A stretch of DNA of 61,194 nt, counting the filler. It is 7 parts of 7 records of this genome, joined end to end, with 100 filler letters (N's around TTAATTAATTAA, not from the genome) between each part and the next. Parts side by side here need not be neighbours in the genome. Positions count along the whole stretch, not along the records: positions 56,712 to 61,194 come from SRR7504441_686; 6 more parts are not named here. One strand, given 5' to 3'. Within the stretch, counting starts at the first letter, position 1. The number at the start of each line of letters is the position of its first letter. A model generated the notes under the pieces. That model was not told the origin of the DNA. It saw only the letters and a list, made by a program, of their open reading frames with translations, and did no database searches. A program made the position numbers and the translations under genes. Below are positions 6,039 to 60,100 of the stretch, one piece after another.

Positions 6039-7963
6039 TCAAATCTCGTTGCGCATGATCTTCTCTCGCATCGTCTTCATCAGATTATTCATAAAATAAA
6101 GGTTATGTATCGACGCCAGCGAGAGAAACCTGACCACCCTCTCACTCGGCACGGCCATCGGCGCACAATGGCTCGTTCTGCTTGAACAAATGGTGCAGGT
6201 AAGACCGGCTGTACGGGATTGTCTCAAGGTTTGGATCTATTGGCCCAAAGTCATCGACATGTTTCCTTTGCGTGATCCTCAGCTGGCCTTCGCTGGTGAG
6301 CAGCGTGCCGTGCCTAGCCCTGAGATCAGCCCCCAGCTGGGGCACCCATCACCGGGCGATCCGGGTCGGATTGCAAGCATCGAACGTGTCGCACCCAAAC
6401 GGCACGAGAGCCTCGATCGACCGCTCGTCAGCGATCCCCAGGATGTGGTTCGGCTTGTTATCCGGCACTTGCGGCATCAGCCAGCCGAGCATTTCGACCA
6501 TCTCCTCGCGGTCCTGCCGAGACTCAGCCCAGCGGCTGGCTCGAGAGCACCTTGCCCAAGCTGCCGCCGATTGCGAACCCGTCGAATGGGAGAGAGCTGA
6601 GATAATCCAAACTCAACTTGCGCAGCTCCTTGTCTGCCGCACGTGCTGGCCGGGCAGGCCATCGGCGAGCTACCTGTGCCGCCGTGCACTACAGCGTACA
6701 TAGCTTGCTCGCGCCTATCCTTGAGATGCTCTCTGAGCGACCTCGCCATCCAGCGATGCGACAAGAATACCGAGGCTCTCAGGCGCTCCGGCGTGACGTG
6801 ATACGGCGGGAGCTCATCCAGCGGAATTATGATATCGGCGCCGATCTTCTTTTGGGCCTGGACTGCCGCTGAGCGCCGGGTGGCACGGCGGCGTGCCTGA
6901 ACAGTAGACTCTGGCGTAAGGTCTATCTTCTTGCCATCGTAGTAAGACCGGAACTGGGTTCCCTGCTCGGACACCTTGAGCAGCGTGCCCTGACCCGCCC
7001 GCTCCATCGGCGGTCAGCGAGCTGGCTGCACCCCGCCGTTGTCGTCGGTGTTCCTCTTTTTCTTTTGCTTGAGCTCCGGCCCGTCCTCCTGGGTTATATG
7101 ATTGAGCGAGAACACCTAGCCCAGGCTGGCCCCTGGTCGAGCCATGCACGAGCCTGAAATCCGCCCGAATCGGTTATAATCGGCCCGGTGCGGTTCATGA
7201 ACTTGTGCAGGCCTCCGGCCTTCTCGATCACATCCACGCCAGGGTGCACCTGCAGCGCGTCACGCCGGCCTGCCACGCCGGCACCAGCAGGTGGTACGTG
7301 TTGGAAAACTGCAGCTGCACCCCTGTCTGGTCGGCTTGCTGCCCGTCAACAGCCTTGAGTGCCCCTGCACCTCGCATAACCGCCGACCGCTCTACAGGAC
7401 GCCACCGTTGGTCGCAACAGGCACAAATGCCGGGGTGTGGATCACGCCGTGCGGGGTGTGGATCTTGCCCACACGCGCGTTCGAGCCTGCCCGCCGGGCT
7501 GCCGCTGCTGAGCCTGCCGGGGGCACCTGGTTTGGTCGATTTGTGAACAATCTCCCACCGAAAGAAATCCGTCGGGCTCCAAGCCGGGTACTGCCGCGGC
7601 CTCAACGGCAGCCCTGGGTGAGCGCCGCACCGTCTCGGGCCCCGGAGGCGGTTCAAGTGGGTCCTGCTTTGGCCGGAACCGCGGCTTCTTGTTCCGGTGG
7701 TACTCCTCGCCTGTGGCCTGCCAACCGCTCGTGCGTCCCCCCCGCGGAGGGCGCCTGCTGGTACTCTTTACGCATCTCGGTGCACTGCGCCTGCGCCCCA
7801 GGCTCGCCTCCCCCGCCTGGCGGCCCGGCGCCTGGAGCGCCTCGATATCGGCCGGGACAGCATCCGGCGCGGCCTTTTTCTGGCGGAGCTCTGTCTCAGC
7901 CTCCCGGATCTTGCGCTTGAGCCCGGCCGACGGGTCGGACTCGCCAGCGGCAGCGGCGGACAT
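6039..7963 (-). CDS. tgt: tRNA-guanine transglycosylase (bacterial-like TGT) with N-terminal WHEP-like domain; 13 introns
   Basis: Removing 13 introns of 35-42 nt gives [78 protein letters not shown] and SIHNL, all TGT motifs in the right order. Confidence 0.93.
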
Positions 7964-8140: not shown

Positions 8141-11103
8141 ATGGGCCGGTACAGCGACTCGGACGAGGACGGGGATGCGGGGGGGTCGGATGTGGGCGCC
8201 AACCTGCAGCTGCTCCGACGCAAGACGGGGCTGGTCAAAATCTTAGAGCTGATGCAAGCCGCCGACCAGGGCACCCTGCGGCTGTTCTTCAGTGACTGGA
8301 GTGGCAACGTCAAACAGCTCAAGTGGGCCCGGCTGGAGGAGGAGAGGCACGGCCTGACCGAGGAGATCGGCCGGGTCCGCGACAGCGCTGCCGGCACCAT
8401 GGCCAGGCGGGCGCTTGCAGCCTTCACGAGCGAGCTGACGGTGGGCCGCCGCTGCTGCCGGGGTGCCAGGCGGGGCAGGTGGCAGCGTTTGGGATGTGGA
8501 AGGATGCCACAGCCGGCGGCAAGGCGGGCCGGTCGCAAGATCAGGTGACAGAGCTGAACGAGATGCTGTTCACGCTCAAAAATAAAGTGGCGGAGCAACT
8601 GCAGGGCCGGATCCAGCAGCACTCGGATGCGGAGCGGCTGCGGGTGGGCTGGAGCCAGTGGCTGGCACTCTGGCACCACGCAGCTCGTGAGCGGGCCGAT
8701 GCGGAGAGTGAGGCTATGGCAGAGGCGCTGGCCAGAGCCAGGCTTGTCGCTTCAGGTGCTGGCAGCGGCTGTCGACAGGGTGTCGACTGTGCTGCTGCAG
8801 GCTCACTAGCGCGCTCCGTTATGAACCGGATGCTGAGTGGGTTCACCTCCGAGTGTTTCTCGCACTGGAAGGTGGGCTGCCCGCTGTGAGTAGCCACTGA
8901 CGCGTGCACTACCAACAGACCGTTGCATTTGATACTAAGTTGGAAAGAGCTGCGGAACAGCAACGGAACGCTGAAGGTCGCGCGCGCGGACTAATTCGCA
9001 GGCCAAACTGTGGGCGGCAGGTAAGCTCGCCCTGTTCAAAATCTCGGCTGCGGATGCCTTTTTCAGCAAGATGAGCGAACGGTGGGTGCTGGGTTGACAT
9101 GCTGCTGACTTCTAGGGGCAGTGCCACAACAGCACTCGTAATAGAGGCCATGCAGCACTGGAAGGACATTTTGATTGCTAAAAGACAGCACGGACTGGAG
9201 GAGGAGCGCGACGAGCTCGCCCAGGAGCTCTTTATGATGCGACACACTGGTGACCTGGTCTATGGCTTTTGATTGAGATCTCCGGTGACAGCTGCTGACT
9301 CACTGTTCCGGAAATCTGTCGAACAGTGGATGCAGGGATCGGTCGCTGGGGCATTCCGCGCTTGGGTAAAGTTGATGGGGAAATCGCAAGTCAGCCGACT
9401 CAAGAAAAGAGTTTATCAGCTAGAGCAGATGATTCGTAACGCTGCGACAAAGGGTCTGGCGATTAGCCAGCCTGCCAGCCCCAGCAAGCTGATCAAAACC
9501 ACCAGACGAGTGCGCAAAGTGCGTAAGCGTTCCATGAGCCGTAAGGGACTGGGTCGATCCAAGCTGCCAATGGGACTGGGTTCAGACTCGCAGTGCAGTT
9601 TGCTCCTGAAAATGAACATGGAAACCATTGGCCCTGGGACGCCCAAGCGGACTACTTTTGAGCAACAGTTCGTTTCGGATGTGGCCGGCTCGCTGGATGT
9701 TCACGAGGCACGGATTTCACTTAAAGCAGTTGAATCTCGAGGTGTGCCGTTTGCTGAACAAGGCCTGAGCTTGACTGTAGGTAATCGAGTGAGGGTAAAA
9801 TTCTCGATCTTGGCGGGTGGCAGTGGGACAGATGCTGGGACACTGGCACAGCAGCTAGTACTTCAGTCAAAAGACTCTGGGAGTGATCTCTACTCTGGCG
9901 AGGTGTGCATGATTATCTCCTCCTCTGAGGCTGTGTAGGTTACATGGAGGAATGATAGGGCATACAATGAGGTGATGGAACTGCCTATTGATAGCGATGT
10001 ACCAGAAACGCCGGAGAGGCATCAGGGTGATAGTTCCCAGGTCCCGTGCAGCTGATATTTCGCCAGATGAGGAGGAGGAGGAGTCAGAGTACGAATCGTA
10101 TTACGAGGAAGAAGAGTATGAGGTCAATCACCACGACAAGGATGATGCAGAAACGCCGGTAGCCACGGTAGAAGACTTGTTGCAGTACATGGTTGAAGAA
10201 ATCGAACGCTCAAGGAGGACAGCGCCACCAGAAGTCAAAGCAATGTTGGTGTCCAAGTTCTCAGATGCGCTGTACTACAAGCATCACATGCAGCTGGAGT
10301 TTGCTGGATTGATGGAGGTGAGATAAGCACACATGCATCAGTGAGTTGAGTTCCTAGGTCTTCAACCGTTGGAAAGATGTGCTGTATTCAAGCAGGATTG
10401 CAGTCTGCGAGGAGCACATCCAAGAGTTACTCGAACTGAATCAGCAGCTCAAGCACCGTGCTGCTGAAGCAATGAAGCAGAAGGCAATCTCTAATCCACT
10501 TGTCTGTGGTTATGACTTTTGGCAGGTCCGGCGGAAGTGGGCCCTTGGGACCTCATCAGAGTGCTTTCATCATTGGCATAATGTGGCAGAGTCACGTCGT
10601 ACAAACATCCTAGAGGTACAGCGTGCTAAGCAGAGTAACTCATCTAAATTATGATGGCCAGACTGCACGGCAAGACGCGATGCACAAGGTCGTGGCTCTG
10701 CAACACCTTGCTGCTGAGGCAGTGGCAAAGAAGGTGCAGAGCTTCCCAAGGCTCGTGGCTCTTTTGCTTACAATGCGGCAGGCTATGACGTATTGGCTAT
10801 ACCGAGGCTACATGGAAGGCTTTAGTCTATGGTTACATTGTACTTTGACCAGCCAAGTGCAAAAGTTGAAGCTCGAGCTGGGGCAGTCGCAAGAGGAGCG
10901 TGCAATGTTAGAGCAAAAGGTGCCTAGTCATAATAGAGACGATAGGATGACTGTCGTATAGGTGGAGAGGCTCAAGAGCAAGTTAGAAAAGGCGGCAACA
11001 GAGAAGAAAGCGCTGCTGGAGGAGGTCTTGAGATAGATTGGGTCTGTTGTGCATGTGACGTGGCTGTATACAGGTGAATCACCATGTCCAGTTGCTTCTA
11101 TGA
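8141..11103 (+). CDS. Large coiled-coil protein with repeated F..W motifs (Sfi1-like periodicity), multi-intron
   Basis: Consecutive exons in changing frames separated by ~40-nt introns; recurring ECFSHWK, AFRAW, ECFHHW, EGFSLW; acidic tract; inferred stop TGA 11101-11103. Confidence 0.55.
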
Positions 11104-13218: not shown

Positions 13219-13318
13219 NNNNNNNNNNNNNNNNNNNNNNNNNNNNNNNNNNNNNNNNNNNNTTAATTAATTAANNNNNNNNNNNNNNNNNNNNNNNNNN
13301 NNNNNNNNNNNNNNNNNN
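13219..13318. other. Artificial contig linker N44-TTAATTAATTAA-N44 (also 26453-26552, 36347-36446, 46936-47035, 51670-51769, 56612-56711)
   Basis: Six identical 100-nt N-flanked all-frame-stop spacers; genes are truncated at them. Confidence 0.98.
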
Positions 13319-13555
13319 CGCCCAAGGAAAAAGGAGAACAAATGCGCGCACGGCCGGCGCAGGAGCCGGTGCAAGGAGTGCGGGGGCGAGCCGCCGTCGA
13401 GGAAGAGGTCTGGCGGCGCGGCGGCGGGCCCGCTGGTCCGGAAGCGGACCACTGCGCCCAAGCAGACTGTGTATGTGCTCAAAGGGTGGGCGGTCGAGCG
13501 GCCGGACCACCAGAAATGCAAGTGGCAACGGGTGGCAGAAGTGCCCGCAGGGTGA
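13319..13555 (+). CDS. 3' fragment of a protein with a CxHGRxRxxCKECGG putative zinc-binding motif
   Basis: Frame from 13319 reads RPRKKENKCAHGRRRSRCKECGGEPPSRKR... to TGA 13553-13555; absent from the ORF track because it has no start codon. Confidence 0.6.
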   Translation, partial: RPRKKENKCAHGRRRSRCKECGGEPPSRKRSGGAAAGPLVRKRTTAPKQTVYVLKGWAVERPDHQKCKWQRVAEVPAG

Positions 13556-13608
13556 GCAGCTTACCCTGCGGGCAGACGGCGAGCAACTCCCAGTTGGTCC
13601 CAGTACCA

Positions 13609-13654
13609 ATTGATTAGAATCTACTCGATTCTAATCAATCAGTTGATTAGAATC
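13609..13654. repeat. 13-bp perfect inverted repeat ATTGATTAGAATC/GATTCTAATCAAT plus a third arm copy
   Basis: Arms at 13609-13621 and 13627-13639 with a 5-nt loop; TTGATTAGAATC recurs at 13643-13654. Confidence 0.8.
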
Positions 13655-14064: not shown

Positions 14065-17000
14065 TTAGCGAGTGACACTGTTGGGTGTGAGCCGGAGGAA
14101 GAACACCCACACGGTGAACACTCCGTGCATGTAAGCCTGCACCAGCACATCCACCGCAAAATTCGAGTGCTCGGAGGTGGCTTGGTGAACGTTCATATCC
14201 ATCACCCGTTCGATCACAGACTCGTTGTCCGTGTACGGCATATTGATCGGAAATCCGTGCACCTGCGCCCCATCATATCAAGCAATCGGCAACCCGTTAC
14301 CTCATGTGTGCGGAGGTACTTCTCGAGGTCGGCCGAGCCTTCCTTCTTGTCGCCCAGCCCCTCGGCGTCGCCGCAGCAGAGCTTGACAAACTCGGACGAG
14401 GTGCACCAGACCTCGTGGTCGCCCTCAAACGCCACCCAGTCCTCTATGAACGGGATCGACGAGACCAGTCGCAGCAGGTGCGCCTCGGTCTCCTGCCCGG
14501 TGCTGCTCTCCCACAGCGGCGGGGCCAGCGGCACAACAAATGCCGGCAGAAAGATCGGCTTGCCAGCCATGTCTGGGGCAGCCGCGATCACCATGTTGGG
14601 GTTGGAGCAGTGTGTGGCGCTCCGGGCGGTCCGGAGCCACTTCTGGGCATAGTAGCTGAACTCTGGCGAGCTGTGCGCCGGGATAGAGCCTTCTTGCCGG
14701 ATCCTCTCCGGTGGGAGCAAGACAGGGTTGAGTGTAAGGTAGAGCTCCAGCATCATCGGCCGGTCGGGCTGCGGCTCGTCTTTGTCAGAGTCGTTGTCGC
14801 CCGGAAGGTGGATGAGCTTGGTCGGGTCCTTCCTGTAAGCCACGTTGAACACCGGAGTCTCCACGCGCATCACGCCCTCCAATTTGGTGTTCATGTACAC
14901 TTGCGAGAACGGAATGTTGACTCCGCCCAGCCAGGCCACGTGCGGTTGCTCGGGCGAGCTCCCAGGCAACTCGTCAAAGACGTTGATCCGGATCATGTCA
15001 GTCACTTGCTCGATAGAGCCGGGCGTGAATTTGCCGTCCGGTGTGTCCACTGGCAAGAACATCGTCTCCTTCCAGACCGGATCGCTCCCACAAATCGGTC
15101 GGGTGGACCGCTCGCCGCCCTGGAACTTGACCTGCACAGAGCTCATCACGCTCCGCGCCTCCCGCTCTTGGTGCTCGGCCGCCAGCTCGGCCGCCAGTCC
15201 CGGCCGGCGGCGGCGAGTGGGCGAGCTGGGTTGGTGGCTTTCAGGCTGAGCGATTCTGCGGACAGGGAAGTCGAAGCCTTGAATGCAGAGCACCATCAGC
15301 TCGCACTGGGCGGCCGAAGTGGCCTCCGGCAGCTGGGTCTGCCGCTTGGGCTTGAGTTTGCGCTCCGGCACAAACGACTCAAAGAACTCTGTCCACGAGA
15401 AACTGCCCTTCTGGTCGAGAGGCGGCTCGCGCACCACGTCATCGTGCGATACGACCCTGCGCTGGTTGGCCCGCTGCAGCTTGGCCTGCGCCTTCACTTG
15501 GTCCAGGTACCTCCCGATCTGCGCCCTCGGCCCACTCAGCTGCTGCTTGCTCAGTCTGTCCGGCTCCACAGCCTCCAGAGGGATCTGTCTGTCCAAAAGA
15601 GGCACTGGCTTCTCGCGGATAGGCCCGAGCGAGTGCCACCGGCGGGAGAGCAGCTGGTGCCGCCGCCGGTCGGCTGGATCCCCGAGCACGTGTAGCTTAG
15701 CCTTGAAATCGTCCACACGGAATAGAGTGCCCATCTCGCTCAGTTCCTCCACCACCGCGCCTTCTGCCAGCGCCGCCCGGTTGACAGGGTTGTTAGGGTC
15801 GAGCTCGGTGAGCATGTCGCCATGCAGGTCGATACCGTGCAGCCCGGTCCCCAGCCGCGGCGCCCTCATTCGCTCCTGCTTGGGCAACGGGGGCACCTCC
15901 GGGATGCACACCTGGTCCTCGTCGTCGTCCTCGTCGCCCACCGCCTCCGCCACGCCCCATTGCACCGCCAACTCCAGCTGCGCCGCGCAAAAGTGCTCAC
16001 CAGACGGCACCACCACTGGCTTGTTCGCCTCGGCCCCCGCAGCCACCTTCTCCCTCGCCTTGGCTGCCCTCTCCTCTTCCCAGAGAGGCACAAACCCCAA
16101 CTGGCCCTGCAGCCGGTAGCGCTGCTCCGGGTCGGCAATCAGACTCTCGCCGTGCTGACCGGGGATCGCCACGTTGCAGCTGCCGACCAGCTCATCGACA
16201 AACGTGTGCTCTTGCCAGATCTCCACGATCAGGTCGCGCGGCCACGACAAGATCTTTAGGTCCATCGGCAGCCCGAATTCGACAACGAATCTGGCGCTCA
16301 TCTTGCACGGCTCAGTCCGGTGGACCAGCTGTCCGTTGCAGTGCAGCTTAGCGTAATAGCAGATGGCCTCGCACTCGCCCTGGTGCTCCAGATGCCCCCG
16401 GGCGCTCTCAGGCTCACACGAGTCGTGCACCAACGGCATCCGCCTGCATACGTCGCCCAGCGTCTCGTCGGATAGCGGCACGTTGCCCATCACAATCAGC
16501 TCCGGCACCAGCTCGCCATCATACGCGTGGGTGCCGATCTGGATGCTGGCTGGCTGGCACCGGGACTGCTGGTCGCGCACCATGGCCTTAAGCTTATCCG
16601 GGTTAAGCCCGCGCTCCTGCTTGGCCTGTAGGGTGTTCATCTGATCGATCAAGGCGTCAAGCTCCTCTTGGATATCGTTCTCTGCAGACAGCCAGTTGGC
16701 AGGGCCTCCTAGCCCGATCTCCTCCTCAGGCTCAAGCCCCTGCGCCACACGTGATTCAGCCGCCTTGGAGCGTAGCCGGCGCTTCTTCTCGGCCTCGTCC
16801 AGCTGGGCCTGTGTTAACTGATCATTTCCTTATTAGGGAGGCGAGGTTAACCTGCTTGGCCTCGACCAGCCGCCGGAGCTTGGCCATCTTGAGCTCGAGC
16901 TCCACCCAGTGCAGCCGGTCTAGCTCGTCCAGCTGCTGCTGCTCGTCCTCGCACACACTCCACACCTGTCGGCGGATTCTATCAGATCCTGTTCCAACCG

Positions 17001-18562
17001 CACGAGGTTCAGGCTGGGCTCTGCACCTGGTTGGCAGCCGGATGCTTGTGCAACCGGAGAGTGAGGTTGGTCATGTTGGCCTGCGCCTCGGCCTGCGCCT
17101 TCTTCACCAGCCCCCACCGCTCCACTATCGCCCGAAGTAGCAAGTTCTGGTCGGCCATTGCCGTTGCCATCCGGCTCCGGTTCTCCTTGAGGGTCCTGTG
17201 CGCCCTCCGGAGCATCGCAAGCGCCTGGGTCCAGCCCTTGTAGTGCTCCTCGTAGTTGGCCTTGGTCCGGTGCGAGGTGGGGTCCAGCTGCAGCTTCTCC
17301 GAGCTTAGCTCCAGGATCCGTCTGCTCGTCTCCAGCTTCTCATTCAACTCTGGCAACGCCTCCCGCAGCACCTAGGACAATTGTTATTTCAGATACAGCT
17401 CGCGGCACCGGTATCTTGAGCGCGCACGACTGGGCCTCGCGCTGCTGCTGGACTGTCCTCCAGTCCTTGTACAGCCCGATCAGCCTGACACGTCCGTCAG
17501 AATGCCATTAGGATGTCGTTGGGATGCCTGGACACGTGCCAGTGCTCTGCCCTGAACAGGTGGTGGTCTTCAAACGCCAGCCGGCCCAGCTGCAGCTTGA
17601 GCGTGTACTGTTGCGGCTCGGCCGCCGCCTCCAGCTCCGGGAGCGCCGTGTCCAGCATCGGGGCTCGGAACCTGCCCGCACCGTCAGCACGAGCTCAAGC
17701 AGCCAACGGACTTGGTCTCCAGGGCCGGGTCCTCCGGCTCGAGCCAGCGGACTGGGTGGTGGCTGGAGTGGGACATCGGGTCCGGGGCGCGGGCCAGGGC
17801 GTCCTGCGGGAGGAGCCCGAGCATTGCGCGGTCGGCCAGCCGGCGCTTGGCTAGCTTCTTGAGGTTGTCGTCTGAGACCTCGGTGGGGTAGGGCACAAAC
17901 AGGCCCTGCTCAGCGGCTCAACTGCATTTGAATGGCATTTTAACGGACCTGCTCGGCCATCTTGCCCCGCTCGAGCTGCCCGAGCTCCAGGTCCACGTCT
18001 AGCTCGTCCTCCGGCTGGCAGCAGCTAGAGCACCTGCCCTCGCTTCTCAGCCACACCAGCCCAAGCCAGCGCACCGGGCTAGCTCAAAGCACAAGCTGTC
18101 GCAGCAGCCGGGCTCCTCCTCCTCTCCCACCGGCGCCGCCCCGGCCAGCCAGACCGCTTCGCTCTGCCTCAGTTGGCTGGTGGTTGGCCGGTTCGTCCCG
18201 AGCCGCTGGCTGATTTGGGACCGTTCTCTGTCAAACTGGCGCTGCTGCTCCACACGCTCCTCGATTAGATCGAGCTCCAGGTTGTCAAACGACTCAGCTG
18301 GCGGCAGATCCGGCTTCTGGCCGGAGTTCTTGCTGTCCCGCGCACCAGGCGACCACTCCACGCTCCGTCGGTCCGGGCTGGAGCCCTCGGGCGGCTGGAA
18401 CTTTGCATGTTTGGCCCCGAACCCGCGATCTCTCTCGAGCAACGGCGTGTCCGGCGCGTCCGGGTCCGGCCGCTTGGCCCCGCATTTGCGGCAGAATTGG
18501 GAGTCATCCAAGAACTTATTCCCGCACTCCCCGCAGACTGCCTCAGGCTCTTGCTCGTCCAT
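14065..18562 (-). CDS. CC2D2A: CC2D2A/MKS6 ciliary transition-zone protein, with N-terminal zinc ribbon and an apparent internal deletion
   Basis: HLFRAEH coiled-coil region, two C2-like segments (IVEIWQ; PVWKET..INVFDE..WLGGVNIPFSQVY), LVSSIPF..WCTSSEF..GD, and C-terminus GFPINMPY..AVDVLVQAY..VFTVWVF. CGECG..FCRKCG lies at the N-terminus. Confidence 0.85.
16809..16851 (-). mobile_element. Introner-like 43-nt GT-AG intron (family copy C) in CC2D2A
   Basis: gttaacctcgcctccctaataaggaaatgatcagttaacacag; contains an in-frame TGA; 26/30 identical to the core of the intron at 58000-58039. Confidence 0.65.
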
Positions 18563-22715: not shown

Positions 22716-24687
22716 CTATTGCCCCTCGGCCGCAGGCTGCTGCTCCTTGGCTGCCGGCAGCTGCCCTCCAGCTCAGCCCCAGCCCATCAGCGCTGGCACC
22801 TCGTGATCCGGCAGCCCGCACTCCGCTACCACCTCCAGCCCCTGCCCCCGCTCCCGCCCGCCTACCCTATCCCCAGGCACCGTGAGCCGCTCGGTGAGCT
22901 CTTGCCCGTGCTCCGGCGTCACCCCCAGCTTGGCCTCCAGTGCGGCCACCCTCTTCTCCGCGGAGCCTCGCTCCCGATGGACTTTGCCTTCCAGTTGGAT
23001 CTCAAGGTCATTTATCCTCTTGTAGGTCTCCAAATGGCCCAAGTCCTTCTGCAGATCAGCCGCCTGTCCCAAGATCGCCAGGGCACAGCTGCTTGGCAAG
23101 ACCAGCTGGTAGTCGGCAGCGTTGACTGCCTGCACGATCTCGGACTGCAGATCGCAAATCTTTCGCTCCTCTGGCGTCAGCGCCTGCCCGCCTTCAGCTT
23201 TGGCTGAGCTTTGCATAGTGCATGACCTCTCTCTTGAGCTTCTCCTCGTCCATCTTCTTCTTCTGAGCCCCTGTCCGGCCCTCCTCCATGCAGTCCTCTA
23301 CAAACCTGCCGGCCAGTCACTCTGGCCCAGCCAGGGGGACCCACCTTCGGAACATGGCCCTCATCCGTTTCCAGAGCATCATGGCAGCGTAGTTGATCAC
23401 GTCAGCCCACGGACCCATGTCCTGAGAGAACGAACCGGTGAAGGCCGGGCTGCTGTCGTTCAGCTCGGTTGTGGTCATCTCGCGCAGCTGAGTCCCGGTC
23501 AGGGCATAATATTAAATAATATTTAATTGGTCGCCTTCACTTGAAGCGAGAGTCGCTTCTTGAGCTGGTCCCCCTGCCGGCCGGCTGAGCCGGGCCCAGC
23601 GGCGAGCGGCCTGTTTGACGAACACCCGAAGGTCGCAGTTGAGTCCGAGCTCCATCGCCACCTGAGACCGTGCTGAGACTCTGAGATCCAGCCCTCGCCA
23701 CCCTCTCGCGCCCGCGCTTTTTAATATACTTGACTATCCCGGAGAGCCCGGTGACGTTGATCACCGAGCAATGCACCTGCCCCGGATCGCCCGCTGGCCT
23801 GCTGGTCGGCTGCCTGCACGTTATCCGGGTTTGTGATTTTGCCGTCTGCAATCATCGCTGGAGTGAGCCTCACCATCCCCTCCTCGTCGTTCGGTACCAC
23901 CCTAGCCGGGGCTGGCCGGGCGGCCGGGCGGGCGGACCATTTCATCTTGTCCAGCTCGAGCAGCACGTAGTACATTACGAAGTAGTCCAGATTGGCCTCC
24001 TGCTCCTGCCGCCCAACTCTCACACCACAGCACTGAGCCTCTCAAAGCCTGCGAGAAAGTGTTTTCAAGTTTATGCCCGTCCGCCTGCCCCGACTGAGCC
24101 AGCCGGCCCCCGCCCGCCCGCCCGCCTTGGCTTTGAGCGCCGCCACTTCCTCCGCCGACAGCGGCTTGTGCTCCCCCGTGAGCACCTGCCAGCCCTCGCC
24201 CGCCACCCGGCCAGCTCCACCTCGGTGACGTTGGTGACGTCGTGCTCGATGTTGTTCTCGTCCTGCCCACGCTCCCGCCCGGCCCGCCCGGGCTCGCACC
24301 ACCCACTTGCCGTGACTCCCCAGCGACGGTGCGGCGGCCCTCTTATACACCTGTACCCGAGCTCGCCCGGCCGGAGGGTGGGAGGGTGCCCGGCCAGACT
24401 GAGTTCGGATCTCCCACTCGATCTCGCGCTGCAGCTCCTCCTTGTGCCCCGGGTTGTGCGCTGGCCCTCGATCAGCCGGGCCCGGCCGGCCAGTGCCGTG
24501 CTGGGCGAAGTGCTTACGGATCTTGTCCTCGGGCCACTCGCGGGCGTGGTCTGGGCACTGGCCGGGCTGGGGGGTGGCGGGCGGGGCGCACCTTGAGCCC
24601 GATGGACGACTCGGCCTCCAGCTGGCCGATCAGCTTGTCCATCTTGGACCGGCGGCGACGCTCGATCGGCGACGGGATCGCTGCCAT
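22716..24687 (-). CDS. Hypothetical intron-rich protein with C-terminal coiled coil
   Basis: MAAIPSPIERRRRSKMDKL start; many short exons separated by ~40-nt introns; inferred stop TAG at 22716-22718; no family recognised. Confidence 0.5.
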
Positions 24688-26452: not shown

Positions 26453-26552
26453 NNNNNNNNNNNNNNNNNNNNNNNNNNNNNNNNNNNNNNNNNNNNTTAA
26501 TTAATTAANNNNNNNNNNNNNNNNNNNNNNNNNNNNNNNNNNNNNNNNNNNN

Positions 26553-36346: not shown

Positions 36347-36781
36347 NNNNNNNNNNNNNNNNNNNNNNNNNNNNNNNNNNNNNNNNNNNNTTAATTAATT
36401 AANNNNNNNNNNNNNNNNNNNNNNNNNNNNNNNNNNNNNNNNNNNNGAGCGACGGTTCGACCGCCGGCACGAACAGGGTGAGCGATATGATGAAAGAATT
36501 GAAGAACCGGTATATGAACAGCCCAGCCGGCGGTTGATGCAGCGCTCGGAAGCGGCAGTGGCTCGCCAGGATAAACAGCAGGAAAAGCCAGAACACCGGC
36601 AATCCAGCCAGGAAAAAGCTCCGGCGCGCCTCGTCCATCTGGCCGGAATGTACTGTACGGGCTGATTGCCGTTGGACAACGGCCTCGGCTGCCAGGCGCA
36701 CAACTACCGCTGCTCGGTGTCGGGTCGACCTGTGCAAAAGCGCCGGTTGTGTCGGCGGATCCCGTTCGCTGAGGAGCCAAC

Positions 36782-46935: not shown

Positions 46936-47228
46936 NNNNNNNNNNNNNNNNNNNNNNNNNNNNNNNNNNNNNNNNNNNNTTAATTAATTAANNNNNNNNN
47001 NNNNNNNNNNNNNNNNNNNNNNNNNNNNNNNNNNNCAAGACGCGCTCAGCGCAAGACACACGGGATATCACCGAAATTCTCTTTATATAAAACTAGATGG
47101 CCCGGTCTCGCCGGCGACACTCTTCCTTAGACTCTCCCTATATATTCAAAGAACTATCAGACTGGAGAGTAGGGTACAAGCAGAAACGCAGATTCGGCTG
47201 GCGGTTGGCTTTTTTCACATCATCTACG

Positions 47229-50200
47229 ATGCCAGGGTGTCTGGATCGGCGAGTGCGAGCGGTGGCGGTGATGGCGGTGATGGCGCTGGCGGCGATGGCA
47301 ATTCAAGAGGACGAGACTGTGTCGCTCGACAGCACCGATGACTACCCCGAGTATCACCTCGAAATGGAGCGCGGGCGTGGTGCCGCCCCCCCCGCCTGGC
47401 CGCCGCAATCGAGGGTGGGACCAGTCGAGGCGGTCGCAGCCCGGGTCAGACTGGGCGACGTGCTGAACGCTCGGACGGCCGCACGCGATGAGGCTGATAA
47501 CGCCGGCGAGCAACAGGCCGGCGCCCAAACGGCCCAGCCGAAGGGTGAGCCACCGCTCGCTGCGGGAGGAGGGAGCCGCCGGGCAGGGGTGGTGGCGGTG
47601 GACCCCATGGTTGACAGCATAGTGATGACTAGACTCCGCGGGGCCATTGATCAGATCCGGTCCGCAGCCGATGGGGCCATCGCCAAGACCGAGCGGCGGG
47701 CGCGAGCTTCCAAGCTGGCGGTACATCACGCGGTGGCGGCGGCCAAGCGCGATGCCGGAGCCAAGGCACTCGGCCGGGGCGGGGGTAGGGGGCGAACATC
47801 TGGGGGTAGGTGGCCAGCATTAGGCGATGGTCTGTTGAGCAGATCCGCGATGCCAAGGAACGAGTTGCTCAGGACAACATCGCTATCGAGGCTGAGTCAC
47901 AGCAGGAGCGGAGGATGGTAGAGGCCGGCGACAAGGAGACGCGGGATGGTATCGCCACGGTGGTCAAGGACGAGGCGGCTTGGGCTCGCACCGGGATAGA
48001 CGAGGCAAAGGTCGAGTCCGAACATCAAGCGAGGATAGGGTACGCCAGGATGATGATGATGCAGAAGCAGGAAAATGAAAGGATCGAGAAGCACAGGCGA
48101 CGGGAAGAAAAGGCACGGATGAAAGCGGCACAGGACGCGGTGCTGGCGGCGGTAAAGGAGGAGATCGTGCGGAACATGGAGATCGAGGACAGGATGGACC
48201 AACTCAAAGAGCAGGCTGAGCAGGAGCAGAAGGCCACCGCCAAGAAACTGGAGGCCGAGCGGGCAAAGGTGGCCGCGCTCGAGCGACGGGCGGACGAGGT
48301 TCGGAATAAGCAAGCCAACGCCGAGGCCAAGTCGAGAGAGAGCTCCACGAAGGCCCAGCGCCGCGCCGATGTTGCGATTGCACGGGCGCGCGAGAAATCG
48401 GCGGAGGACACCTCCAAGCAGCGCGCTAAGGAAGCCCGAGCCAAGGCGGTCCAACAGGACCGGTCCGAGCGCGAAGGCAAGGCCAAGGTGAAGGCGCTGA
48501 GCCTCTCATTTGCCGAGGAGCAAAGGATGCTCCAAGAGCTCGATGCAAGCATCGCTGCAGCCACCGCCACGCATGAGGCTCAAGCAAAGCAGGAGCACAC
48601 CGCGCGGATGGCTGCCGAGCAGGCTAATGAGGCAGCTAAGAAGTCAGCGCTTCAGGCTACGCTGCAGAGGGCCAGTGAGGAGCTTGCTGTGCTGCGCCAG
48701 GCTGAGGACACAATGAGACTGGACCAACCGCGCAGCACTGTGGATGGCCGTCCGTGTGTAACACCGTACTACTATCAGGGCGCCCAACATTCAGGATGTT
48801 TAGCTGATCCCAACTATTACGGTGCGCAGGGGCAAGGATGGTGTCCAGTTGGAGTGATTGGCAGCAAGTGCTTTGCCCAGGCCCCAACGCACAGTGAGCA
48901 GGGTAGCTGCACCGAATGGACCAAAGATGCCGCCGGCAATCCAACTGGGAAGTGGGCTGCTTGTGCACTTGGGCCTGTGCAGCACATGTTCTCTCAAGCT
49001 CCAGGCCGGCCAGTGGGCGCCTGTGGCCGTGAGGACGCGATAGTGAGCGCACCAGCCACCAGCAGCAGTCAGGCAGCTGCCGTGTGCTCGGGGATCCCAG
49101 CCTGTGTGAGCTACGCGTGGGATGCAACGTCACTGGTTGTACATGCGTGCGGTGTGGACACTGCAGGTCAGAACGGTGTAATCCAATCGCTGGAGCCAGT
49201 GAACGGATGGGAATCCGGCGACAAGCAAGGGGAGATGACCAAGGAGAAGATCGCCGAAGCGATAGGTCGTGCCAAAATCAAGGCCAACGATGCAGAGACG
49301 GCTCTGCTTGTTGCTCAGAGCGAGGCCAGCTTGCATGAGGACCAGGTCAATGCACAACTCGGAGACTCAGGTGCTGTGTCGGTGCCCGAGAAATTGTCTC
49401 AGAACCGGGAGGCACAGAAACAGAAGGTTCAGAAAGAGTTGTTCGAACTGAACCAAGCTGAGCAGCTAGAAGTTCGGGCAGAGCAGGCTGCAGCCGCTGC
49501 ATACGAGACTGAGAGAAAGGCTGAAGACGAGGCAGTGAAGGCGGCACACTTTCAGACTCAAGAACTTCAGCGGTCAGAGAAGCTAGTCTCCTCTGCTGAG
49601 GAAGAAGCAGAAAAAGACCAGGAGGCCCTGAATTCCATTGCAGAGGATTTGGTTGCCCTCGAAACTGAAAAGAAAGTGAGTAAGCATACTATCCAAGGCA
49701 CTAAAGCAGAGCTCAGCGATCAGAAACAGTTGGAAGCGCAGGAGAAGTCGGCTGCAAAGGAGGCCAAGAAAGTAGTCGAAAATGCAGAGGAGAAGCTTGT
49801 GCCCGAAGGAAGCTACGCACATGCAGTGACACTTGCTAAAGAGGCGCACAAGAAGCTTGAGCAGGCGGAGGGCAGAGAAAATTTAGCCAGGGCTGTTATG
49901 TTTGATAGCATGAGGGTCTTTGACAGGAAGCAGAGGGCAGCAAAGATGATGCAGCTCAAGCTGGGTGAGCTGAGGGATGCTGCAGAGAATGAGGCCGCCA
50001 ACGGAGAGGCCCCTCAGCTCGTAGATGTTGTGACTGTGGATCTAACTCTGAATGTTTCTGTTGAACGCATTGACAAGGGTTCAATAGAAGCTGGAGCAGC
50101 TAGCTTGGTCGGAGTTTTGCCAGATCAGATTTCTGTCATCAAGATGACTGGACTAGCCAAGCCAAAAAGCGAGGTGACCATCCAATTGGTAGATCCGCTT

Positions 50201-51669
50201 GATAGCGACCAAAGTCAATCATCAGCTTTCAGAGAAATCACAGCAGAGGTCTTCACTGGCAAGATTCTTGGTGACACCCAAGTTGCAGCATCCCGCTTTG
50301 TTAGTCGCAGGAAACAGCAGGTAGTTCCAGCAAAGCTAATTCATTGTTCGCTCACACTAGACACCCCAGCCTTTGCGCTAGACCGTACCCTAGTCAAGGA
50401 ACAAGCAGCAGGGATCTTGAGGATCCTTCCAAATCAGGTCTCCATTGTCAACGAGACAGCCGCCAATCCGAGCAACGACAAGTCAATCAAGCCAGCTCTG
50501 GTCAACCTGGAGCTAGTCGACAAGTCTGGGACAGATCCAAAAGAGACACCAGTACTGGAGCGACTGCAGGGTCAACCATTTGACGGCAGGGTTGTGGGGG
50601 GAGTCAAAGTTAAGAGCTTTGGTGAGCCTGTTGTGCAAAAGCGTGCTGTCTTACAAGCGCTTGATCCAAACTCCCCTCAAGCACAACTCGATAAATATGA
50701 GAACGAGGTTGAGACTGCTGTTGCCAAAATGAAGCAAACTGCAAGCCATTCTGAGCATGCAAAGGCTGAGTATGACCGCCGGACGTTGGACAGAAAGGTG
50801 GCAAGTGACGAGGCGAAGCGATTGGAGAGCAAGGCTGAGGATATATTAGAAGCTGAGAATGCGAAACAAGAAGCTGAGAAAGCTGCTATGCGAGAGGCAG
50901 CAGCAAACGCAGCAAAGATAGCAGTTGAAGCTCTTGATAAAGCCACACTCAAGTATCAACTTGGGAAAAGCCAGTTGAGTGAAGCGAAGCTGAGGTCTGA
51001 AGAGACACAGGATGAGGCCATCTTTGTAATGAAAGCATTTGAGCAGGATGACTCAGAGACTGCGGAAAGGGAAATCAAGGAAGACGCACTCGTTGAGCAA
51101 GTATCTGCCAAGTTGGAGTCAATGGATCTCAAGGAGACCCAGTGTAAGCTCGAGTCTCTGAAGATTAAGCATGAGCGGAAGCACATGCTTACTGTTCAGC
51201 TTGAGGTGAACCAGTGGGAGCAGCAGATGCATACCTACCAGCAGGCGCTGGCTACAAGCCACAGAAGCGTGGACAGCCAGAACAAGGACAGTTTGTATGA
51301 TGGCGTCTCGCTTGGAATATCTCAAGATAGTAATGTCCCAAGTGTCTCACTTCAGGCCCTAGCATATCAGGAGCTGCGAGACAAAATGAAGCAATCGAAT
51401 GACCTCTTCAGTGTAAACAGAAGATTGTTGCAGAGCAATGAGAGCAATGATGAATTAACGGTGTCACCCACTGCGTCTCTCACAAAAGAGCGGACTAAAC
51501 AGCCAACGAAACAGCCAACAGAGACTCCAACAAAAGAGCCAACGAATCAGCCAACTCAAGGTCCCACGACATTTCCAACACATGACCCAACTAAAGCGTC
51601 AACACTCACGCCAACTGAGCAACCTACAGGTGCTCCTAGCGCAGCTCCATCAGATGCTCCAAGCTCTGC
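47229..51669 (+). CDS. Large secreted/surface protein: signal peptide, coiled coils, fibronectin type II-like and Cys-rich modules, PT-repeat stalk (3' truncated)
   Basis: AVAVMAVMALAAMA signal; TVDGRPCVTPYYYQG..GC..WC (FN2-like); two similar beta-rich modules; PTKQPTETPTKEPT repeats; a few introns near the 5' end. Confidence 0.65.
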
Positions 51670-52021
51670 NNNNNNNNNNNNNNNNNNNNNNNNNNNNNNN
51701 NNNNNNNNNNNNNTTAATTAATTAANNNNNNNNNNNNNNNNNNNNNNNNNNNNNNNNNNNNNNNNNNNNGCTCCCGAAGCTCCTGCTCCCGAAGCTCCTC
51801 CGGTGGAGGGTGCTGCCGAAATGGCTGCTCCTGAGACTCCGTGAACACTATTTACTATACAAGTAACTTATAATTAATGCGAGTTACATTAAACAAGATT
51901 TATTTCAACCCGAGCCTATCTAAACGAGCAACTGTGTACACAATCATAAAGTCGTCACATAAATAATTGTAGACTACGTCACGTGGACTTGGAAAGCTCG
52001 CAAGCGTACGTAGTCAGAGTG

Positions 52022-56546: not shown

Positions 56547-57143
56547 TGCCCTCAAGAGCCGCCTCGGCGCCTTGTGGCCAACGTCCGTATGATTTTCGTT
56601 TATTGTATTACNNNNNNNNNNNNNNNNNNNNNNNNNNNNNNNNNNNNNNNNNNNNTTAATTAATTAANNNNNNNNNNNNNNNNNNNNNNNNNNNNNNNNN
56701 NNNNNNNNNNNCGATTCTTTTTAAAATTTATGTGCACATGCCCACTCAGCATCTTCTCTGACCGCCCTGGTCGGAGATCGGTCGTGCTGTTAGACCTCTG
56801 CCTTGGGGCTGCCGGCCTCCGCTGGTTTATGGGAATTTTCAATATGTCCCCCCCTCTCAGATGCAAGTATCCCCTATGATACCTTGAGTCAGTCAGTACA
56901 GATCTTCACTGAGTCAGTTGCAGAAAACCCCATGCAACTGCTGACCCGAATGGAGGATTGTATGTTTCAATGTGTACCCCTATGATTCTAAAACAAAGGT
57001 GTATTTAGTGAGTTGATTGGATGTAAGTATTGTAATTTTGAAAAAGTGTGCTCGTGAACTTGAAGCGGCAGAACGGTAGCGCTCACCCATCGGCCAGCGC
57101 AGTGAAGAATTAAATAACGGAAACCTTCGGCCTTGTGTCAGCG

Positions 57144-60100
57144 ATGGTGCGGACAGTTGGCAAGGAGACGAGCCTGTCCGGGATGACGCCGATGACCGGG
57201 AAGGAGCCGGCCCGGGGCCGGGCCCTGCCCACGATGGGCTCCGACCAGCGCCTGGCGGACCACGTGCTCGCCGATGACGACAGGCCACAACGGCACGAGC
57301 CGTCCGACCAGCAAATCTTCAGCGACGGCCGGCCGCAGAAAACAGTGTTAGACAAGGCGCTCGAGTCGGTTGGCGTGACCCCCAGCTGGGTGTTTGAGTG
57401 GTCCCCCACGGTCGAGTACCCGCACTTCCAGGTGTGTGCCGCGTCGGCCAGAGGGCCAGCCGAGGATAGGTACCGTGCGACCAAAACTTCTTCCGTTCGC
57501 CGTGGTACCTGCGCTTCTTCGACGTGATCAACATCCTGCTGTGCCTGGACCAGATCTCCGGAACCTTCCGGTCCGTTCCGCGGCCCGCCGTTGTTGACCG
57601 GCGGCCAGCTCGATGACCATGGCCTATATCTCGTACGGCGCCATCATCCTGTTCGTGGTCGCGGTATACTCCCGTTACTACGGTGTCCCCTACCGCCCCA
57701 AACGCTTCACCGCCGGGGGAGCAGATCCGCCGGATGTTCCGGAGCCTTGGGACAATCTGACGGTGCGGGGCGACCCCCAGGGAGATCTGACAGCGTTGAC
57801 AGGACACGCTGATTCTAGTGGTTTACTTCACAATTCTGACCTGCATCGCACTGCCAGCCAACGGCGGCCAGCACTCGCGGTCCCGGAGGTGGACCCACGT
57901 CATCGGGCTGGGCGGCTGTGCGGTTGGCTGATGCTCGACGGCTCACTTTTGAGTGGCAGGTGTGCTGCTGATGCTTCTGGTTGTGACGAGCGATCTCTGG
58001 TGCGGTTACCTTCCTAATAAGGGAATAACCAGTTAACAGGGACGACGTCTTCAAGCTCAACACGCTCGGCCAAGGCACCCCCCCCCCCCCCTCTAATCAG
58101 GCTGCGTACGAGCCTAGCCCAGGCGCCATCACGGTTTGCTTCATCCTGCTCTGCTTTCTCAGTCTCGCAAACCTGCTTGCACTCGCCGAGATCTTCTGCC
58201 CGTGGATCCCCAGCCTCTCCCGCCACGGGTTTACCACAGCTTCGCTGGCTGAGGTACACTCGTACATGTATGTGCGCGACTTGCTGCTCCCGGTCCCACC
58301 GGCCCCCGCCCGGCCTCGAGTGCTCAGCCGATCATACAACTACATGGACCTCGAATGGTGCGGTTACCTTCCAAATAAGGCAATAACCGGTTAACAGGGA
58401 GTCGCCGCGGTCGCTCAACGGCAACGTGGTGAGCTATCAAGTGCTGGTGCAGGCCTCAGACGTCGGATGGAACGGACCGTTCAAGGAGATCATCGCAGAC
58501 GCCCGGGAGCGGCCCAAGCCCGACAGCAAGGATAAGACGCCGGACGACATGCCGTACAAGCACAACTACGAGGAGGACGAGCCAATGCTTTCTCAGGACG
58601 ACGGGGTGAGAGGCGCGATTCCGTGCCTGATGGTGGAGGAGTCGACCCGCAAAGTGCGCTGCCGGGTGTCTGGGCTGGACCCGAGCACGAGGTACGCGTT
58701 CAAGATCCGAGCGGTCACGCCCAAGCCTGCCATACCGGTCAAGCGGGACGGCGATTGGGTTGTGCCGGCCCAGAAGACGCCCGACGGTGAGTGGGAGCTG
58801 CTGCCAGAGTTCGCAGACGAGCAAAGCTGGTCGGACGACTGGAACCCGGACTCGTTTCTCGACTCGGCGGGCGGGCTGTTCTACGGAGGCGGCCGGTACG
58901 GGCGGCAGAGCCAGGCCTCTTGGGCTATCCCGACCCTGCCACAGCCGCCTAGCAAAGGCTGTTTCGACTCGCCGGTTGCGGCGGAGGATGTGGCGATGGA
59001 TGTGCCGCTGCCGCCGGACTGGAAGCACGACAAGAAGGAATTCATGTCTGTGGCAGAGTTCCCTACTCCGGACGATTGGTGCCGGTATATGATGTCCGAG
59101 AAAGGGATGAACTGCACCACCGAGGAGACGCTAGACACGCTGCTGACAGAGCTGAGCGAGCAACAGTGCACAAAAGTCGCACTGCTCCCAGACAGGCGAG
59201 CAGACTACAGTATAATAGTACACCCTAACCCTAACCCTAACCCTCTCCCAGATAGGCGAGCAGACCATAGTATAGTATAATAGTACACAGTCGTAGTGCA
59301 GCATAGTCTAGTCATCTGGACTAGGCACCGCCACCAGTTCTTGCTCAGCGTGAATGTGTGGCAGGCGGGATTACCGAGGGTTCATCGACTTGTGCCTAGC
59401 CTTCTACTGGCCACAGCCAGACACTGAGAGCCCATTCTGTCGAATGAAGTTCAAATATTTCATCCAGTAAGCCCCGGCTGAAGCTACAGGCTGACTCTGT
59501 GGGCGCAGCACGCTGCCTCCTAAGATCCGGGGCACGATCCTGCTCGGAATTGGGATCTTCATCGTCCTAATTGCACTCGCTGTTTACAGTCAGAAAGAGA
59601 CACTCGACTATATCGCCGAGCAGCGAGACGAGAACTATGATGCGTGGAAGGTACTAAGCGCGATTGAGTCAGAGCTGGTGTACACAATAACCACCTATAG
59701 CTCAGTGGTTGCGTCGCTTAGCACGAATGCGGTCTCGCAGCCTGGTGGGACCTACATTCAGAGTATGGTTCGGGCGGCATATAATTCGATTTCTTCCGCT
59801 GAAGACATGCTGTGGGAGAACTATGTGACCTGGCTCCACATGTACGATCCAACAGCAAGTGACCTTTTGGCTGGGTGCTGCGGCGCTGACCCATGTGCTT
59901 CAGTTGCGTTCTCTTGCGCCATTGGTATTGCAGGGACAATGACCTTCATCTCGCTGCCATGCTCCATACTGGTGCGTGTCTTGCCCCTGAGTGCTTGCCG
60001 ATCCAGTGGGTTAGGCCTACAAGAAGAAGCTTCAGGATTTCAGGATTGGCCAGCAGACCTTCTACGTGGACCATGAGCTGTATGAGGGCTACCACTGCAC

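Follow-up and report, generated by a model that had tools for sequence, protein, structure and literature searches.

The window studied here, a stretch of 61,194 bases in which seven contigs are chained, holds two nearly identical introns of 40 nucleotides (nt), A and B, at different positions of one gene on its last contig (56712-61194), and a third, diverged intron of similar sequence, C, in an unrelated gene on another contig. We read the three as one small family of minimal spliceosomal introns (40-43 nt) that were copied into new G/G coding sites (the slash marks a splice junction), an introner-like family, and we put the probability of this reading at roughly 55%. A and B probably reflect a recent re-insertion within one gene, in an introner-like family of low or unknown copy number. 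The three introns are the following.

Intron A: 58000-58039, plus strand; 40 nt, GT..AG, phase 2 in a Trp codon (TG/GGA), 42% G+C, stops in three frames.
Intron B: 58358-58397, plus strand; 40 nt, GT..AG, 37/40 identical to A, phase 2, TG/GGA, 45% G+C, stops in three frames.
Intron C: 16809-16851, minus strand; 43 nt, GT..AG, phase 0 (CAG/G...CAG/G), diverged, in a CC2D2A-like gene on another contig.

The three differences between A and B fall at element positions 16, 24 and 32 (58015/58373, 58023/58381 and 58031/58389), and the exons around the two introns are unrelated to each other by self-BLAST. The shared block extends to 45 nt (57998-58042 and 58356-58400), since both copies are preceded by TG and followed by GGA. 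No repeat in the window is stronger (E = 5e-11, among five self-BLAST matches in all), and 100 dinucleotide-shuffled versions of the window produced no match of this kind. The original prediction had placed two such introns, alike at 37 of 40 positions and set in unrelated exons, at exactly these coordinates and in this same phase 2, split-Trp context, and on both points it was accurate. A and B lie 358 nt apart with 318 exon bases between them, and neither self-BLAST nor profile searches found another near-identical copy in the rest of the 61 kb. As had also been remarked, there is no clear target-site duplication (TSD): neither A nor B has a terminal inverted repeat (TIR) or a TSD beyond a 2-nt GG ambiguity, which is a property of any G/GT..AG/G intron. 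Two other accounts of the pair were rejected. Tandem duplication of a 358-nt unit fails because the exon after A is unrelated to the exon after B, and copying of the whole 45-nt block with its flanks fails because these flanks encode the conserved Trp-Asp/Glu pairs and the frame would be shifted by an insert of 45 nt.

The gene that carries A and B was modelled by eye from the three-frame translation, with the start codon at 57144, and the model was then checked by script. Its features that matter here are listed below.

Host gene, first seven exons: 57144-59195, plus strand; multi-pass membrane protein with an FN3-like domain, continuing past the intron at 59196-59364.
Ordinary GC-rich intron used as a comparator: 57432-57469, plus strand; 38 nt, spliced in RNA contigs and colinear with the orthologue P0145.
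Ordinary intron: 57918-57959, plus strand; 42 nt, starting with GTGCGGTT like A and B but otherwise unrelated, colinear with P0145.
Exon upstream of A: 57960-57999, plus strand; 40 nt, colinear with P0145.
Exon between A and B: 58040-58357, plus strand; 318 nt, 106 codons, encoding a transmembrane helix and the first strands of the FN3-like domain.

Removal of 57432-57469, 57571-57608, 57763-57802, 57918-57959, A and B leaves an open frame of 604 codons up to 59195, and G+C at third codon positions (GC3) is 0.75-0.89 in every exon of the spliced model. Retention of A brings a stop at codon 244 and retention of B one at codon 350, each through an in-frame TAA, such that the in-frame stop earlier reported for A has a counterpart in B. 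The exon between the two introns keeps an open frame with G+C of 0.62/0.48/0.77 at the three codon positions, and its C-terminal half aligns with P0145. A full HMMER search with the exon after B recovered one strong relative, P0121 (E = 8e-69), whose cluster mate is P0145 (969 amino acids); a word-based homologue search with the same exon gave no match. The spliced model and P0145 are 47.5% identical over model residues 48-616 (E = 2e-177), and all seven junctions are free of gaps in this comparison, the orthologue reading Trp-Asp at A and Trp-Glu at B. P0121 begins with MDIEWESP and so crosses the B junction without a break. Taken together, the stops on retention and the gap-free colinearity with P0145 mean that A and B must be removed to make the conserved protein, as the original prediction had argued, and on this predicted model both are true introns. 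Its further statement that removing B rebuilds an FN3 motif stands in part: the Pfam fn3 match is weak (E = 0.0021; 18.7 bits, below the 25-bit cut-off), but the junction itself is strongly backed by the orthologue.

Environmental sequence adds to this picture. Fifteen sequencing runs matched the host gene with small word shares (0.05-0.09), and four of them, three of RNA and one of DNA (seawater or marine metagenome), were examined. Contigs from these runs match parts of the host gene, with at least 99% identity in five of seven cases and 95-99% in the other two. The RNA contigs lie on 57149-57541 and 59149-59198, that is, outside A and B, and indicate that the host gene is expressed. The GT..AG comparator intron at 57432-57469 is spliced out in a contig from RNA run X3, whose joint keeps 74 nt on its shorter side, and a loose contig end in X1 agrees with this. 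An independent DNA contig (run X2, 58311-58548) has B in place, with an A>C change at 58378; B is therefore not an assembly artefact.

The first intron beyond these seven exons has features of its own. It is a 169-nt GC..AG intron (59196-59364) across which an RNA contig from X14 jumps from 59198 to 59368 (with a 6-nt ambiguity), in agreement with P0145 colinearity, and it holds about 3.5 CCCTAA telomere-type repeats. Direct repeats of 33 nt (59185-59217 and 59245-59277, 88% identical) flank the CCCTAA repeats, the first of them spanning the exon/intron border. The segment 59185-59364 looks like a local duplication with capture of a telomere repeat.

Intron C was found in several ways. In an ungapped scan with A, the segment 16811-16850 on the minus strand matched at 28 of 40 positions, with a 27-nt core matching at 21 of 27 (at most 17 anywhere else in the window), and the best unrelated ungapped matches on either strand reached no more than 24/40. 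An nhmmer model of A and B only recovered C at E = 2e-4, with the next best hit at 7.8, and blastn-short gave 23/26 (E = 0.006). C has the same orientation as A and B and a register within one base of theirs, and it resembles them from about intron position 9-10 until 3 nt or less before the 3' end. A match of C in antisense was rejected, as the ungapped scan held no comparable antisense match. On these alignments A, B and C are related in sequence. The earlier statement that other introns share no such sequence thus holds within the host gene, but not in the window, where the intron at 16809-16851 shares 28 of 40 positions with A.

C separates a 114-nt exon from an open frame of 871 codons with a CC2D2A C2 domain (GC3 0.95 and 0.77, respectively). 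Reading through C meets a TGA, and its 43 nt shift the frame. By frame and codon periodicity only, C is a predicted intron; a homologue search with the first 300 residues after it found none. The genes are not paralogous, one having a CC2D2A N-terminal C2 domain and the other transmembrane and FN3-like segments, and self-BLAST found no other similarity between them. That C sits in an unrelated gene on another contig indicates that the sequence has spread beyond one gene, as an intron-generating repeat predicts, and makes this a small AT-rich intron family and not only a same-gene duplicate. Among the three differences between A and B, two sites are informative when C is included, and A shares C's base at both. 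A may be nearer the ancestral form than B, although two sites are not significant.

We compared the three members with 13 other short introns of the window, which were picked by eye and of which only the four in the host gene have orthologue support. G+C is 42-45% in A, B and C and 49-84% in these 13, so the original description of A and B as AT-richer than typical introns was correct. Low G+C is not unique to the family, however, since there are three other AT-rich candidate introns in the window. These heuristic predictions, at 23488-23540 (minus strand), 10920-10961 (plus) and 17372-17408 (minus), have 40-46% G+C and unrelated sequences, and the first holds an AT-rich near-palindrome. Stops in all three frames occur in 3/3 family members and in 0/13 of the other short introns, a contrast that is suggestive only, because the members are related to one another. 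The motifs common to A, B and C do not occur in the 13 comparators. In length the members (40-43 nt) do not exceed most other short introns (36-47 nt), and their predicted folds (-8.9, -8.7 and -7.8 kcal/mol for A, B and C) compare with -7.1 to -15.5 kcal/mol for seven other short introns.

Some of what A and B have in common belongs to the host's splicing signals. Their first 8 nt, GTGCGGTT, occur seven times in the window against 2.0 expected (at 7188, 14940, 17003 and 34039 on the minus strand, 57918, 58000 and 58358), a count reached in none of 100 shuffles. Five of the seven sites start GT..AG segments of 36-42 nt (57918, A, B and the minus-strand sites 17003 and 34039), and GTGCGGTT is probably the host's preferred 5' splice site rather than an element-specific sequence. 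Other short introns have a TRAY-type (CTGAC-type) branch motif whose A lies 11-13 nt before the 3' end, and a putative branch motif lies at the same 11-13 nt distance in A, B and C, branch sites being predicted throughout. Once the 8-nt 5' site and the closing CAG are set aside, 26 of the remaining 29 positions are still the same in A and B, an agreement that splice signals cannot explain. Frame-based intron screens of the window were noisy (646 and 46 candidates; 37 loci in a stricter screen, including an antisense artefact over A) and give a rough background only.

The sites occupied by A and B bear on how the sequence moved. Trp-Asp and Trp-Glu can be encoded only as TGG-GAN and the orthologue has these residue pairs at the two junctions, which suggests that TGGGA was probably coding sequence before the introns arrived and was probably not carried in with them. 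The spliced coding sequence (about 1.8 kb) contains four TGGGA sites, two of which are the A and B junctions, so the second insertion appears to have chosen a site matching the junction of its donor. Since A and B lie so close together and have no other near-identical copy in 61 kb, copying within the gene seems a better description than random transposition. RNA-mediated copying is thought likely because the A/B unit runs exactly from GT to AG without TSD or TIR and all three copies are in the sense orientation; a cut-and-paste transposon is less likely.

Under this family reading, C would be an older, diverged member whose sequence reached an unrelated gene at an earlier time, and A and B would be a very recent pair that arose by re-insertion in the same gene or transcript, into a pre-existing TGG-GA site. 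The excised intron might have reverse-spliced into a junction-like site of its own transcript, with reverse transcription and recombination following. An alternative route would be short templated DNA repair primed on TG/GGA microhomology, and the two routes cannot be told apart by present evidence. We infer the direction and mechanism of copying, as we do further copies elsewhere in the genome. A bolder version, which we consider doubtful, would make the family a 40-nt 'intron cassette' outside fungi, propagated through RNA, combining host-optimal splice signals with a hairpin and three-frame stops, and reverse-splicing into G/G sites mostly of its own transcript. Were it true, the three-frame stops would make an insertion harmless in any phase, with unspliced mRNA being destroyed, and the window would have caught a fresh re-insertion within one gene.

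Several observations weigh against the family reading or parts of it. Three-frame stops arise in 14-18% of composition-matched shuffles. The nested inverted repeats of the original prediction are present, but A and B fold no better than shuffled sequence (A, z = -1.4; B, z = -1.6; 21 and 14 of 200 shuffles, respectively, fold as well), so that the hairpin is not significant in either. C folds with z = -2.8, its ends paired through GTTAAC...GTTAAC. In the three-sequence alignment 83% of cells pair and one change affects both sides of a pair, but 116 of 500 shuffles reach the observed pairing. A hairpin may be a trait of the family. The first ~9 nt of C do not match A and B, and in the alignment the splice sites of C are displaced, the 5' one by 1 nt and the 3' one by 2 nt, so exact GT-to-AG copying is apparent in A and B only. 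Each end of C also carries GTTAAC and each flank CAGG, which can be read as a short TIR and TSD, although one copy is too few to call either. A piggyBac-type TTAA duplication in C was rejected, as the remainder after excision is not a multiple of three.

Other points on the same side concern splicing, the orthologue and copy number. The RNA contigs show no splice junction of A, B or C directly (57542-59148 is uncovered). P0121 lies on a JGI contig (2,238 nt) and P0145 on an ENA contig (5,894 nt) where its 969 codons are uninterrupted; together they represent the only clear orthologue of the host gene, and these contigs are either transcripts or a relative's gene with none of the introns seen here. 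The orthologue protein may fit both the presence and the absence of introns at the A and B sites. Profile searches found no fourth copy in the 61-kb window. In metagenome collections there were no matches to a central 25-nt pattern or to the two termini with a free middle, patterns that fit A/B-like copies only, and viral contigs and prokaryote genomes gave no match to exact patterns including a family-wide one; the scanned collections did not return the A/B locus itself. Three copies are known, all within 61 kb, whereas an introner family needed four or more members to be kept in the published catalogue (PMC9860276).

Much of this evidence also bears on rival explanations. A and B might be two independent insertions of a DNA-transposon introner resembling a miniature inverted-repeat transposable element, present in many copies and with its master copy elsewhere. 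Such an element would insert at G/G or TG/GGA-type targets and bring its own splice signals. The presence of three copies in 61 kb across two genes, the identical 5-nt target at A and B, the G+C below the host's, as for introners in general, and the palindromic ends, CAGG flanks and end-to-end fold of C would all suit such an element, and TSDs, TIRs or both are found in 59.2% of 130 published families (PMC9860276). Nevertheless, we think it unlikely. A and B lack a TIR and their sole 'TSD' is the GG ambiguity, all copies are sense-oriented, and two independent insertions 358 nt apart are improbable unless there are many thousands of copies. Moreover, the window holds no transposase-like open reading frame and no longer parent element resembling the repeat, and the search for a transposase near it, which had been proposed as a check, was negative. 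Of the original claim of a recently active intron-generating element, then, the true recent duplicates and the third copy in an unrelated gene speak for it, and no mark of a transposon is present in A or B. At the other extreme, a one-off duplication within the gene to a second TGGGA site, with the likeness of C owing nothing to common descent, would account for A and B being the only near-identical pair and lying in one gene, and it belongs to a documented class (82 of 1,610 duplicated fungal introns, and three C. elegans cases; PMC3609843). We hold this to be less probable still, given the recovery of C by a model built without it, the excess of its core over the background maximum, its position in register, in the same orientation and inside an intron, for which chance is a poor explanation, and the family motifs that the 13 other short introns do not have.

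Could A, B and C instead be old introns, not recent gains, whose likeness is maintained by gene conversion or by selection on an intronic element such as a hairpin, a regulator binding site or a stop-codon cassette through which unspliced mRNA is sent to decay? The three-frame stops in every member, with a TGA in C where TAA has changed, and the hairpin register that C partly keeps, including the change on both sides of a pair, would fit functional constraint. However, the 37/40 identity extends to loops and bulges, which selection would not explain, the statistics for the hairpin are weak, and the natural variant at 58378 breaks a stem pair; gene conversion confined to a 40-nt intron between unrelated exons would have no homology to start from. 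We therefore regard this explanation as improbable. We give hardly any credence to the possibility that A and B are not introns, being either an assembly artefact or, together with the 318-nt exon, one long intron. Skipping 58000-58397 as a whole does keep the frame open (498 codons), but the 318 nt in the middle have coding periodicity and are conserved, their product aligning with P0145 up to the B junction, and a single 398-nt intron was rejected for that reason. The DNA contig with B in place is independent of the assembly.

The remaining content of the window concerns the host and its DNA. Contigs are joined by six spacers, each of 44 N, TTAATTAATTAA and 44 N, at the following positions, so genes on either side of a spacer need not adjoin in the genome.

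Spacer 1: 13219-13318.
Spacer 2: 26453-26552.
Spacer 3: 36347-36446.
Spacer 4: 46936-47035.
Spacer 5: 51670-51769.
Spacer 6: 56612-56711.

Window DNA has a G+C of about 60% and contains eukaryotic genes (a CC2D2A-type C2 domain, SRP68, and a cystathionine beta-synthase with CBS domains). The host is an uncultured marine protist. For the cystathionine beta-synthase, the closest matches are contigs at 63-77% identity, with animals and one MMETSP entry at about 40-51%. At gathering score, Rfam had no match to the whole window, and 57900-58500 had none at E <= 1. A single open frame of 1,303 codons (47810-51721, plus strand) has a disordered PT repeat near its end and lies in a region of lower G+C with a strong skew of A over T. 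Near the start of the second contig are near-perfect palindromes of 33 nt (13542-13574) and 31 nt (13609-13639).

Recent clean intron gains in which donor and copy are both visible are rare, and they provide material for deciding how introns arise. In this case what was copied is a minimal intron and nothing more, and a diverged relative shows that the sequence moved more than once. If the genome holds many copies, the family would be among the smallest intron-generating elements, in a lineage whose introns are ~40 nt long, and a candidate case of spread through RNA beyond the fungi; with only three, it would be a tidy case of low-copy intron duplication.

Among known systems, the introners of Micromonas and Aureococcus are well above 100 nt long and present in thousands of copies. 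Like the introns described here, they are repeated introns in a genome of the marine picoeukaryote type, but A and B share neither their size nor their DNA-transposon signatures. They are described as DNA elements with TSDs, TIRs and a nucleosome-linker bias (PMC9860276). The wider survey of introners by Gozashti et al. 2022 reports from 5 to more than 2,000 copies per genome, family medians of 30-654 nt and G+C below that of the host, with TSDs in 49/130 families and TIRs in 72/177 (PMC9860276). A size of 40 nt is thus already within the published range and is not new, and the original wording 'very small for an introner' was overstated. A, B and C have in common with these introners that similarity stops at the exon borders, that the host genes are unrelated, that G+C is low, that the host is aquatic and that length is in range. 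They differ in that the survey required at least four copies, and here three are known, two of them in one gene, with neither TSD nor TIR in A and B.

Closer parallels to single aspects of the family come from fungi. The 1,610 duplicated fungal introns comprise 82 same-gene duplicates, 302 low-copy introns in unrelated genes and 1,226 high-copy introner-like elements (ILEs) (PMC3609843). About half of the same-gene duplications are non-segmental, lacking exon duplication, and a possible move of the intron to a new place in the same transcript has been suggested for them (van der Burgt et al. 2012 via Collemare et al. 2013, PMC3609843). As in A and B, near-identical introns stand at different positions of one gene and the flanking exons are not duplicated; unlike here, they are described without a relative in an unrelated gene, although C is diverged (28/40) and not near-identical, and their hosts are fungi rather than a marine protist with introns of about 40 nt. 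With fungal ILEs the family shares the lack of TSD and TIR (in A and B), the sense orientation, a predicted hairpin and the proposed route of reverse splicing or spliceosomal retrohoming; elements with neither TSD nor TIR that spread through RNA have been described in fungi (PMC3609843; PMC9860276). ILEs, however, exceed regular introns both in length and in stability of the fold (PMC3609843), whereas A, B and C are as short as the host's introns and fold more weakly than their GC-rich neighbours. With respect to general traits, A, B and C have U2-type GT-AG borders and leave an open frame on removal, colinearity with an orthologue holds for A and B, and in all three the similarity begins within 5 exonic or 10 intronic bases of both ends, which is the border rule of PMC9860276. 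The family is probably best filed as an introner-like intron family of low or unknown copy number that includes a fresh same-gene duplication.

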